From: Hydrolagus affinis
Taxonomy: Eukaryota
Length of the DNA stretch: 64,000 nt
Direction: 5' to 3'
Assembly: GCA_012026655.1 (NCBI GenBank)
Contig: JAAILG010000200.1
Span: 1 to 64,000 of the forward strand
Shown here piece by piece: positions 22,213 through 63,135 of this stretch; position 1 is the stretch's first letter, and each line of letters begins with the position of its first letter. The notes beneath the pieces were generated by a model. That model searched no databases and had not been told where the DNA came from. It worked only from the letters and a program-made list of their open reading frames with translations. The position numbers and the translations under genes were made by a program.

Positions 22213-22558
22213 GGAGTCCGGTAGCTCAGTGGCTAGAGCGCTCGCCTTGTAAGCGAGAGACCTGGGTTCAATTCCAGGCAGGGTTGAAAGCTTGGGCAAA
22301 GTTTCCTTGCTCCACACACCTGTCAATAATCCTGTGGTGGTGGGGGGGGGTGGGGAGGACAATAATACTGTAAATTGGTGGTTTCAATCCACCACTGTTT
22401 GTGGGACTCTGCTGTGCGCAATCGGCTGCCGCATTTCGCCCACAAATATACAGTCAATTCACATTATAGCATATTCCGTGAAGCGCTTTGAGACGTCTAC
22501 AAGACGTGATAAGCGCTACATCGGATGCAAAGGATTATTATTATTATTATTATTATTA
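22213..22558 (+). mobile_element. tRNA-derived SINE with Pol III A/B boxes, partial Deu domain and L2-like (ATT)n tail; best-preserved copy
   Basis: A box tagctcagtgg 22222..22232; B box gttcaattcc 22266..22275; core tgtttgtgggactctgctgtgcgcaatcggctgccgc; tail gtgataagcgctacatcggatgcaaagg(att)8. Confidence 0.92.
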
Positions 22559-33515: not shown

Positions 33516-35229
33516 AGGCAGAGCCACCACCGAGCGTGAGAATCTGTATTTTACTCCCGATATATTAAATTTCAAATGAAAGTATATTTAAAGTAGATAT
33601 CGTATTATGAAACTGTAACAGTAAGAGGCCGCAGACTGTCGCTTCAGCGTTGCAGTGTGCGCTAGGATTGGTTTGGTGGGTTTAATGCTAATGGCTTGGG
33701 CTCCTAAATAGTGCCAGTTAGTTCAACATTTGCACCAAAAAAAAGGCGTTTCGACTTGTACTGATCCCGCCAAAGCCATGGGGGGAAAAAATCATGACCT
33801 CAACAGACATTGGTGCACACAAAGGCGGCCCGTATTGCCCCCCCCCCCCCCCACCACCACCCCCTCAAGTCTAAAGCGATTACTGTATTACGCTAACAAT
33901 GTATAAAATGGTGAGAATTATAAGGCGACCCACAACGCGATCAAATGCGTTTGAAAATATCTGCAGAGATATAATGTCCTCCTTCCGTTATTTTCCCACG
34001 GTTCATAGTGAATAAATATTTAAAGGGAGAAAGATACTGTACAATCGGGATGGAGACCCGTGTGTAACAAACACTGTTTGTTGCGGGTTTTTTTTTCTTA
34101 TAAATAAACCCAGGACAGGCTGATTTGTAACCAGCATGAGAATTCCTACCCCCGTCATTATTGTTCGTTATACTCCCTGTCTCTCTCTCTCTCTCTCTCT
34201 CACCCTCTCTCGACTGTCTTTCTCAACTGCCTTCCGATTATTTCGGAGAAGGCTGCATTCCTCACTAACACTACCGTGTGTGTTAAAAAAAATCAGAAAT
34301 ATAGCCATGAATTATTGACATCATGCAACATCCGCCATTAAGGTGTCAATGTGACTGGCAATGAATGGAAAGAATAAGGTTACATTTCTGCCGGATTATG
34401 GCCAACGTGAGGAAGAGGCGGCCTGGCTCCTGCCTGGCTCTCTCTGCCTTGCCGTGCCTCTCTCTTGCCTTGCCCTTGCCCTGGCTATTGCCTTGCCCGT
34501 GTATCTTAAGCACCCTTTGCCCTTTCCTTTCCTTTCCAACGCGGGATGAGAAGTGAGCAGTTGCCCCTGAAACCATCACACTTGCCTTCGGTCCTCTCGG
34601 CCCCACCACCACCCGATCGCCGCTCTTCTCTTATTTGCAGAGATGGCTCTCCTGCCACAGCTACAATTTACAGCACAAAGTCGAACAAGCCTCCAAATTG
34701 TTCTACACCCAATTGGATTGATTTTTGTTTGTGGGGGGAAAGAGGGGAGGAGGGAGGAGGAGAAGGCAAGAGGGGATTCTGTAACTCAGCAATATTATGT
34801 TTAAAAATCGAACCTCAAAAAAACTGTAGGTAGGGAGGGGGGGGGGGTGTATTTGTATGTAAGGCTTGGTGGGGGGGGCAATAGTTTAAAACCAGCTTGA
34901 AGAATGGGGGATGTTTATTATGGGGAAGGATGAGAGCAGCCTCGGAGGTATAAAGTAGTTCCTCGCTTCATTCCACCCCCCCTCCCCACCCCCACCGACT
35001 CTCGCTTTATGGATTTGCGCAAAACTAACTTTGCAACAATAACGGGACATATCGAGCGGGAGGGGCTGGGAGGGGGCGTGTGTGTGGGGTGGGTGGGGGG
35101 GGGGTGGGGAGGTGAGGCGATCACAACGTGGCTACGATGATGCTGTGAATGGTATTTTTTTAGGTGGGGGGTCTGGGTGGGTGGGGAAGGGAAGGGAGGA
35201 GGTGAGGGAGGTATAGGGAGGGAGAGGGA

Positions 35230-35520
35230 GGCCAAGCCGGGCCGGGTGCTGACTGAGTGAGTGATGCGGTGGCTGCACAGCCCCGGCCTCTGAGGGTGGG
35301 ATTGCTCCGCGTGGTTGCGGTGAGGGGGCGGGGCTGACTGAGCGACTGATTGATTGATTGACAGGCCGGTGGGCGGGAGGGAGGGCCGAGGCGAGGCGCT
35401 GATTGGCCGCGGTCTGGCCGGACGCACGGGCACGCGCGGCGCTCTGATTGGCCGCCTGGTGAAAAGGTTACAGTGAGGGTTTGAGCCGAGCACCGAGTGT
35501 CCGCCTTAACATCACAGCGG
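35230..35520 (+). promoter_or_regulatory. FoxG1 proximal promoter / CpG island (no obvious TATA box)
   Basis: GC/CpG-rich. GC box ggggcgggg at ~35324..35332, TGATTGACAG at 35355..35364, inverted CCAAT boxes (ATTGG) at 35402..35406 and 35447..35451, 300-430 bp upstream of the ATG. TSS not determinable. Confidence 0.75.
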
Positions 35521-35572
35521 CTGAGAGCACAGAGCTGGCGGCGCCCGACCTGCCATTGAGAACATGAAGTAG

Positions 35573-35679
35573 TCTCTCTCTCTCTCTAAATCTCTCTCAA
35601 TCTTTCTCTCTCTCTCTCCCTTTCTACATACACACACACACACACACCTACAACACAGACACACACACACACACACACA
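35573..35679 (+). repeat. Compound (CT)n/(CA)n microsatellite in the putative 5'UTR
   Basis: Interrupted (TC)n at 35573..35617, then (CA)n at ~35625..35679. Confidence 0.95.
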
Positions 35680-35691
35680 TATGCAAACTAC

Positions 35692-35751
35692 ATGAGTTGC
35701 CAGCGATTGCAATCCAACTGTGCCGCTGCAGTTTCTTTCACCCGTGTGTGA
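35692..35751 (+). other. 19-codon upstream ORF ([19 protein letters not shown]) whose TGA overlaps the FoxG1 ATG
   Basis: ATG at 35692..35694 is open to TGA at 35749..35751; the A of TGA is the A of the main ATG. Reading frame seen directly; translation not shown. Confidence 0.6.
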
Positions 35752-36986
35752 TGTTGGACATGGGAGATAAGAAAGAAGTGAAAATGATCCCCAAGTCGTC
35801 GTTCAGCATAAACAGCCTGGTGCCCGAAGCGGTTCAGAATGACAACAACCATCACCACCGACCGGCCCCCGACGACGAGGACAAGAACGTTTTGCCAGCC
35901 TTGGAGTCAAAGTCTGAAAACATTCCCAGCAAAACTGACAGCAGCTCCGGGGAGCAGCCCTGCGCGGAAGAGAAGGAGAAGCAGGAAGAGAAAAAGGCAG
36001 ACGGTAAAGAAGGGGATGGTGGAAAGGAAGGGGAAAAGAAAAATGGCAAGTACGAAAAGCCTCCGTTCAGTTATAACGCGCTGATCATGATGGCCATCCG
36101 GCAGAGTCCGGAAAAAAGATTGACATTGAATGGGATCTACGAATTTATCATGAAAAATTTCCCCTATTACAGAGAGAACAAGCAGGGCTGGCAAAACTCC
36201 ATCAGACATAACTTGAGTCTCAACAAATGTTTCGTGAAAGTTCCGAGGCATTACGATGATCCTGGGAAGGGAAACTACTGGATGTTAGATCCATCGAGTG
36301 ACGATGTGTTTATAGGTGGCACCACAGGAAAACTCCGGAGGAGGTCCACAACATCAAGAGCAAAGTTGGCTTTCAAGCGAGGAGCGCGCCTCACTTCTAC
36401 TGGACTGACATTTATGGATAGGGCAGGTTCTCTATATTGGCCTGTATCTCCATTCCTATCCCTCCATCATCCCCGGGCAAGCAGCGCCTTGAGTTATAAT
36501 GGAACCACCTCACCTTATCCGAGTCACCCGATGTCCTATAGCTCGGTGTTAACTCAGAACTCTCTGGCGAACAACCACTCGTTTCCAACTTCAAATGGGT
36601 TAAGCGTAGATAGACTTGTAAACGGAGATATTCCTTATGCCACCCACCACCTAACGGCAGCGGCTGCCCTGGCTGCCTCGGTGCCCTGTGGTTTGTCTGT
36701 TCCGTGTTCAGGCACGTATTCCTTAAACCCATGCTCAGTGAATCTTCTGGCAGGACAGGCGAGTTATTTTTTCCCTCATGTTCCTCACCCTGCAATGACT
36801 TCTCAAAGCAGCACTTCAATGTCGGCCAGGGCAGCGTCCTCCACATCTCCACAGGCGCCTTCAGCTCTTTCCTGTGAGTCTCTAAGACCCTCTTTGCCAA
36901 GTTTCTCCACAGGACTTTCTGGAGGGCTTTCTGATTACTTCACACATCAAACCCAGGGCTCCTCTTCAAACCCTCTAATACACTAA
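35751..36986 (+). CDS. foxg1: Forkhead box protein G1 (411 aa, single coding exon)
   Basis: N-terminus [31 protein letters not shown], forkhead domain from [31 protein letters not shown] (36057) to [24 protein letters not shown], and C-terminus [20 protein letters not shown] are all diagnostic of vertebrate FoxG1. The ORF-track start (TTG 35697) is upstream of the conserved Met. Confidence 0.99.
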
Positions 36987-62317: not shown

Positions 62318-63135
62318 CAGCACCTTCACACCTCAGGCACTGGCAGCATCAACCTCCATGGTTGCACACTCCATCTCACCAAGCCAGTCAGGAACCTAGG
62401 TATTCTTATTTGATCCTCAACTATCTTTCCAGCCCTATATGCAAGCCATGACCCACTCTGCCTTGCTTCACTTCCGCAATATTACCTGACTCCACCTTTA
62501 CCTCACCCCTCAGGTTGTTGAAACCCTCATTCATGTCTTCATTATATCCATGCTCAACTACCTCAACGCCCTGCTTGTCGGCCTTCCAATTCCTCCCTCC
62601 ACAGGCTGCAGATAATCCAGAACTCTGCAGCCCATGTCCTCTACCGCTCCACCCCATCTCCCCCATTCTCACCTGACTCCATTGGCTTCCCAGCACCCAG
62701 AGGATTTAATTCAAGATCCTGGTCCTCACTTTCAAAGCCCTCCAAGGCCTCACCCCACCCTACCTCGGGGAACCTCCTAACCCCCTACCAACCTGCTCAC
62801 TCCCTCCACTCAGCAGGCTCCGGCCTGCTCCATGTCCCCCTACCCACCAGCCCCAGCATTGGCAAGCAAGCCTTTAGCCACTCTGCCCCTAACCTCTGGA
62901 ATTCCATTCTGCAGTCCCTCCACCTCACACCATCCATAGCCTCCTTCAAGTCACGCCTTGAGACCCTCCTCTTCAATGGTCCCATCGGTCATTCCAAATC
63001 CCCTCCTCTCCCTCCATCTTTCCCGATCCCTACCCCAGCTCAGGTCTGAAACATTGACTGTCCAGTGCCCTGGGAAGTTCCCCCCGACATGAAAGGCGCT
63101 ATACAAATGTAAATTTATTGTTGTTCTTGTTGTTG
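62318..63135 (+). mobile_element. 5'-truncated L2 LINE (ORF2 3' part, 3'UTR, (TTG)n tail)
   Basis: Same family as 1..660 in opposite orientation. C-rich ORF2 end encodes HISPILT*LHWLP, FKILVLTFKALQGLTPPYL and GKQAFSHSAPNLWNS-like motifs. Tail tgaaaggcgctatacaaatgtaaatttattgttgttcttgttgttg. Confidence 0.92.

Follow-up and report, generated by a model that had tools for sequence, protein, structure and literature searches.

Overall, FoxG1 of cartilaginous fishes and mammals has an upstream open reading frame (uORF) in common that likely damps the translation of the gene. In five species this uORF runs through the start codons Met1 and Met4, whereas in Hydrolagus affinis it ends at a TGATG at Met1, which is likely the result of a recent frameshift. 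Taken as a whole, we regard this explanation as reasonably probable. The window, i.e. the whole stretch of 64,000 nucleotides of Hydrolagus affinis that was analysed, contains the following features at and upstream of FoxG1, which are listed with their coordinates in the window.

35326..35451, plus strand: motifs of the promoter type ahead of the leader, namely two GC boxes (35326 and 35371) and two reverse CCAAT boxes (35402 and 35447)
35564..35572, plus strand: micro-uORF ATG-AAG-TAG (here called MK-stop), A at -3
35573..35679, plus strand: microsatellites (TC)n (35573-35618) and (AC)n (35626-35679), the repeat between MK-stop and uORF-A
35681..35695, plus strand: uORF-A (MQTT and stop), weak context with C at -3; it borders on the (AC)n array and is not conserved
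35692..35751, plus strand: uORF-B, which has 19 aa in the window and a start in weak context (T at -3, A at +4); its ATG and the motif M-x-CQR...SNCAAA are conserved
35732..35739, plus strand: two copies of TTTC, where the net frameshift is located between the -1 frame of uORF-B in relatives and its +1 frame in the window
35749..35753, plus strand: TGATG, at which uORF-B stops in the window alone; human and mouse have the letters but their uORF reads through
35751..36986, plus strand: FoxG1 coding sequence, a single intact ORF of 411 aa with the in-frame codons Met1 (35751), Met4 (35760) and Met12 (35784)
35768..35770, plus strand: TAA in FoxG1 codons 6/7, at which the overlapping uORF of the relatives stops but uORF-B of the window does not

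The closest named relative of this FoxG1 is that of Callorhinchus (90% over residues 1-60). The GC content is 0.53 at 34001-36000, which comprises the FoxG1 promoter and leader, compared to about 0.33-0.45 elsewhere in the window, and the motifs at 35326..35451 can be read as a putative promoter. A sigma-70 promoter scan gave no match, and such a scan is irrelevant to a vertebrate. Three ATGs are located between 35400 and Met1, namely those of MK-stop, uORF-A and uORF-B. An earlier, sequence-only reading of this DNA had described uORF-A and uORF-B as a chain that leads to Met1, and a recheck of the letters confirmed its coordinates, peptides, frames and start contexts: uORF-A and uORF-B overlap in an ATGA, uORF-B and Met1 overlap in the TGATG, the three ORFs use three different frames, and the start context of Met4 (G at -3, G at +4) is stronger than that of Met1 (G at -3, T at +4). 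MK-stop was absent from its list, although the context of this micro-uORF (A at -3) is better than those of uORF-A and uORF-B. Elsewhere in the window, Rfam matched a tRNA at 22215-22286 (51.7 bits), which may be a tRNA-derived repeat, and there are two stop-free stretches (54-530 on the minus strand and 62522-63049 on the plus strand), which by eye presumably correspond to the ends of LINE reverse-transcriptase ORFs.

For the comparison with relatives, four public runs, whose RNA origin is a guess, were searched over the positions 35671-36060, and one contig each was obtained from three of them (X17, X18 and X19) and none from X15. The three contigs are shark- or ray-like, have a length of 2.2-2.5 kb and span the uORF-B region, and given their length and the guessed RNA origin of the runs, uORF-B is putatively part of the mRNA in these relatives. 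The start codon uATG-B and the M-x-CQR...SNCAAA motif are present in all three contigs, with no listed change in uATG-B. The gaps within uORF-B sum to +2 (X17, X18) or -1 (X19) relative to the window, with four letters omitted at 35732 in X18 and X19 and one in X17, and uATG-B is located 61 (X17), 61 (X18) and 58 nt (X19) before Met1, compared to 59 nt in the window. Rebuilt from the listed differences (unlisted are 12 substitutions and, in X19, a gap of 3 nt), uORF-B has 26, 26 and 25 codons in X17, X18 and X19, respectively, and extends past both Met1 and Met4 as far as the TAA at 35768-35770; three to five codons in each rebuilt uORF could turn into an earlier stop by one unlisted change, but for the overlap to be absent all three relatives would need such a change. 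X17 and X19 are without two codons near residue 33, as are named proteins with 408-410 aa from sharks and rays, while FoxG1 of the window is of the 411-aa type, like that of Callorhinchus; the alignment of X18 ends near residue 33. The register of the relatives before Met1 is also found in P0255, a Logan protein of the skate cluster.

Searches for related DNA in metagenome contigs returned one unrelated locus, and those in viral contigs three unrelated matches. In genome contigs, a single forkhead-like ORF with 53% to FoxG1 (L001:818-1498) was found on a contig of 2 kb that belongs to a Polyangiaceae bin; it is likely a eukaryotic contamination. None of these matches is informative on the leader.

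We take the accessions NM_005249_1 and NM_008241_1, which a published supplement gives without a gene name, to be FOXG1 of human and mouse, and this link also rests on the MLDMG-coding end of the printed ORFs. That supplement (Crowe, Wang and Rothnagel 2006, PMC1402274) tabulates 204 uORF pairs conserved between human and mouse, of which these two accessions form one, and the comparison in the available part of this source is the one between human and mouse. The uORF is located in the RefSeq 5' UTRs of both species, comprises 64 codons, reads MTCQR..SNCAAA in human and MPCQR..SNCAAA in mouse and ends with DAGHGR (PMC1402274, supplement). The mammalian MTCQR...SNCAAA motif, which the sequence-only reading had put forward, is real. 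By hand count, the uATG lies 175 nt before Met1 (192 nt of ORF, less the 17 nt that lie within the coding sequence), and as far as the printed ORFs show, the frame is that of X17-X19 and the end is at FoxG1 codons 6/7. On the basis of the shared start motif, the SNCAAA block and this common end, the pair can be regarded as the orthologue of uORF-B, with a difference in length: 64 aa in mammals versus 25-26 aa in the shark- or ray-like relatives and 19 aa, without overlap, in the window.

The distances between uATG-B and Met1 in X17, X18, X19, human and mouse are all a multiple of three plus one. In all five of these species uORF-B is in the -1 frame, covers Met1 and Met4 and has its stop in FoxG1 codons 6/7, and the peptide ends with ...D[VA]GHGR at the identical FoxG1 codon. 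uORF-B is out of frame with FoxG1 in the window as well as in the five others. The idea of the sequence-only reading, that the whole chain is an ancient device, can be maintained for one part of it: uORF-B is old, since its ATG and motif are present in X17-X19, human and mouse. However, uORF-A is missing in all three relatives, and a uORF-B ending at TGATG was found in the window but in none of the five other species, so that across species uATG-B and, outside the window, the -1 frame are kept but the TGATG stop is not.

Sharks and chimaeras are sister groups, with the mammals outside. Because the five other species have the overlap, parsimony on this tree makes the -1 overlap the ancestral state and the form of the window a derived one (or an assembly error), and we infer the direction of change accordingly. 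The stop/start chain of the window is, judged from the aligned frames, likely a recent local change and not an ancient device. It is rather unlikely that the frameshift results from an error of assembly or sequencing and that Hydrolagus affinis also possesses the overlapping form. Such an error could be imagined in a fragmented assembly of 245,464 contigs with simple repeats adjoining the site and a single copy of the FoxG1 locus to compare, but the neighbouring 411-aa FoxG1 ORF is intact and a clean 4-nt tandem duplication is, as general knowledge, a common real mutation.

The other parts of the chain have a different history. uORF-A starts two bases after the end of the (AC)n array and is for this reason seen as a by-product of the repeat. 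The alignments of X17, X18 and X19 start at 35687-35688, with a run of T ahead and without a (TC)n/(AC)n array. MK-stop was found in both relatives that reach that far up (X18 and X19), while the X17 contig begins too late; this covers the cartilaginous relatives, as the mammalian row of the supplement starts at uATG-B. By hand count, the gap between the stop of MK-stop and uATG-B amounts to 22 nt in X18 and 20 nt in X19, compared to 119 nt in the window, where the spacing is wider because the (TC)n and (AC)n microsatellites stretch it. The sequence EHEIV in two of the 12 N-terminally extended FoxG1 models from bony vertebrates (both from teleosts) is compatible with a kept MK-stop.

A stop/start-overlapped ORF that starts within 100 nt was counted for 105 of the 1204 plus-strand and 140 of the 1245 minus-strand ATGs in the window, and a two-step chain for 9 of the 1204 and 13 of the 1245, respectively, i.e. 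for about one ATG in 100, with the whole window as background and not 5' leaders, which are ATG-poor. The geometry of the chain by itself is uncommon, yet not far above chance and not remarkable. What goes beyond chance is the conservation of uATG-B together with its first codons.

From this anatomy we infer that uORF-B is translated and represses FoxG1. According to the scanning model, the weak context of uATG-B would allow most scanning ribosomes to pass and to start at Met1 or Met4. Those ribosomes that start at uATG-B would stop 17 nt past Met1, beyond both starts, and would be lost to full-length FoxG1. MK-stop, located 20-22 nt upstream in the relatives, would allow some of the ribosomes to bypass uATG-B during the time that they need to reload initiator tRNA. 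In Hydrolagus affinis, the microsatellite would have widened the gap between MK-stop and uATG-B and created uORF-A at its edge, and the 4-nt duplication would have shortened uORF-B. Repression in cis is described for most characterised uORFs in the available part of Crowe et al. (PMC1402274). The sequence-only reading had further supposed that its device might also shift the usage of Met1 versus Met4. Since the conserved uORF-B covers both starts, it cannot bring about such a shift by reinitiation, and switching from Met1 to Met4 was discarded as a candidate.

Annotated protein models agree in that Met1 is the usual start. The N-terminal motif is present in 234 of the 255 proteins from the FoxG1 search; Met1 is the annotated start of 198 of these and Met4 that of 15, while 12 carry an N-terminal extension and nine are of another kind. 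The 21 proteins without the motif include spectrin and dematin records inside FoxG1 clusters 3 and 5, which are a clustering artefact.

The same models indicate limits of the conservation. FoxG1 residues 6-7 are E-R in 160, D-R in 52 and D-K in 13 of 225 homologs, and the overlapping stop site is impossible in the 160 homologs with E-R, which include skates as well as most teleosts and most frogs. The 12 N-extended models, which are biased towards an open frame 0 and some of which may be spliced predictions, comprise six with the register of the window, two with that of sharks and mammals, one in frame 0 and three with none. A +1-frame ATG within 40 codons is compatible with only one of them, and Val precedes Met1 in ten. 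The N-extended models from teleosts have other registers, no matching uATG and traces of the motif in several registers, which suggests that uORF-B was lost in many teleosts. A search with shorter proteins gave six matches but no additional N-extended model. Two frog models (P0047 and P0241) have Asp instead of Val before Met1; if the codons were TGT GAT, a uORF in the -1 frame would stop just before Met1. In the window itself, frame 0 is open upstream of FoxG1 over 60 codons (35571-35750) but without an ATG, and a stop closes this frame in X17 and X18, so that an N-terminal extension of FoxG1 was rejected as a conserved feature.

It is conceivable, although rather improbable, that the peptide of uORF-B itself acts, with M-x-CQR...SNCAAA slowing or stalling the ribosome or working in trans, which would be compatible with a leaky repressive uORF. 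Window and human share 11 of 13 aligned residues (M, C, Q, R, L, S, N, C, A, A and A; hand count), and six of the eight base differences in these 13 codons are silent in the frame of the uORF (hand count; P about 0.002-0.01). Of five net indel events, four preserve the frame (P about 0.045), and the pair is tabulated as a conserved human-mouse peptide in the supplement of PMC1402274. However, these counts are small, the blocks were chosen post hoc, C/T changes at CpG produce the same pattern of silent changes, and frame-keeping indels are equally expected under selection on the overlap alone. The uORF has 19, 25, 26, 26, 64 and 64 aa, with the motif 8 to about 50 codons before the stop, its C-terminal residues are dictated by FoxG1 codons 1-6, the stop of the window has moved, codon 2 varies between S, T and P, and uORF-B is apparently lost in teleosts. 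Similarity across distant taxa is hence found, as expected of a conserved peptide, but conserved length and stop position are not. The conserved-peptide uORFs of animals identified by ESUCA (PMC7530721) are, in the available part of that source, alike in keeping a motif over a long evolutionary distance; uORF-B differs from them in its variable length and stop, and selection on its peptide is putative.

A switch of the ATF4 type appears improbable as well. In such a switch MK-stop would be a reinitiation-permissive uORF1 and uORF-B an inhibitory uORF2 in the -1 frame, and FoxG1 would go up when the eIF2 ternary complex is low. The layout of the FoxG1 leader does match that of human ATF4, which, in the available part of PMC11058473, consists of a short uORF1, an overlapping uORF2 in the -1 frame and clustered in-frame AUGs at the start; X18 and X19 have this layout, whereas the window itself does not. 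MK-stop itself, which has A at -3 in the window and is present in both informative relatives, also fits. FoxG1 differs from ATF4 in the two sense codons of MK-stop, in the short gap of the relatives, in the weak uATG-B and in an overlap of 20 nt (PMC11058473, as available). As reinitiation after short uORFs needs a reload distance, according to the accessible text of the sources, and the 20-22 nt may be too short to reload, ribosomes would probably bypass uATG-B under stress and in its absence alike, which argues for a constitutive bypass over a stress switch. Short uORFs that depend on DENR/MCTS1 offer another comparison (PMC5972666 and PMC11375166, both as far as available): MK-stop resembles them in being very short, in its purine at -3 and in its position before a neurodevelopmental gene, but it has A and not G at +4, and any dependence is only putative.

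About as improbable is a leader that is conserved as DNA or RNA, for instance as a promoter-proximal element or a protein-binding site, with the reading frames as by-products. Substitutions are indeed few (three listed in 63 nt for X18 and six in 64 nt for X17), and the teleost models hold their traces of the motif without an ATG. However, ATG, frame and stop are kept despite a length difference of 114 nt between X17/X18 and mammals, the RNA structure of the leader is not above that of shuffled sequences (z -0.46), and no Rfam family matched the FoxG1 leader.

Very unlikely is an ancient chain of stop/start-coupled uORFs in which termination-reinitiation, as known from caliciviruses and influenza B, passes the ribosomes on to Met1: the ATGA and TGATG overlaps of the window, and the TGATG letters in relatives, human and mouse, speak for it, but neither uORF-A nor the TGATG end recurs in the other species, two-step chains are as frequent as stated above, the GTG before the ATG supplies the G at -3, which would account for TGATG without a role as stop, and the UGGGA core of the viral element TURBS, located 40-90 nt before the stop according to the available part of PMC5972666, is missing, with no TGGGA on the plus strand in 35302-35760. 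The viral analogy drawn by the sequence-only reading fails for lack of this core. With TURBS systems as covered by the available parts of PMC5972666 and PMC3035654, the FoxG1 leader shares the stop/start overlap letters, in the window only; it differs in the absent core, in an upstream ORF that is short and not long, and in an overlap that is not conserved.

A leaky repressive uORF is an ordinary class of mechanism, and the stop/start chain is the least general part of the locus. Our literature search, which covered titles and the beginnings of abstracts, found no paper on a FOXG1 uORF. Neither FOXG1 nor SNCAAA was found in the supplements of PMC10032668 (six files), PMC4568590 (nine of 16 files) and PMC10591829 (two small files), and FOXG1 was not found in those of PMC11057154 (three files). 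The available part of PMC12635981 describes 5' UTR reporters for other genes only. Large uORF catalogues beyond those searched may list the FOXG1 uORF already. What was known is the human-mouse pair in the supplement of 2006; its depth in cartilaginous fishes and MK-stop were not found in the literature search and are regarded as new.

FOXG1 is dosage-sensitive (PMC8780739, available part), and heterozygous loss causes FOXG1 syndrome. A repressive uORF that was kept from sharks to mammals would be a concrete single-base handle on the level of FOXG1 protein, which would make uORF-B a place to look for 5' UTR variants and a possible target for strategies of upregulation. A more far-reaching and doubtful possibility is that FoxG1 is under a two-part control as old as the jawed vertebrates, in which MK-stop gates a conserved-peptide uORF over Met1 and Met4 and thereby sets the forebrain dose, perhaps in response to stress or DENR/MCTS1; blocking uATG-B would then raise the FOXG1 output of the intact allele in FOXG1 syndrome. 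If this two-part control were true, the chimaera form, with its wider gap and its shortened uORF, would represent a natural rewiring of it.
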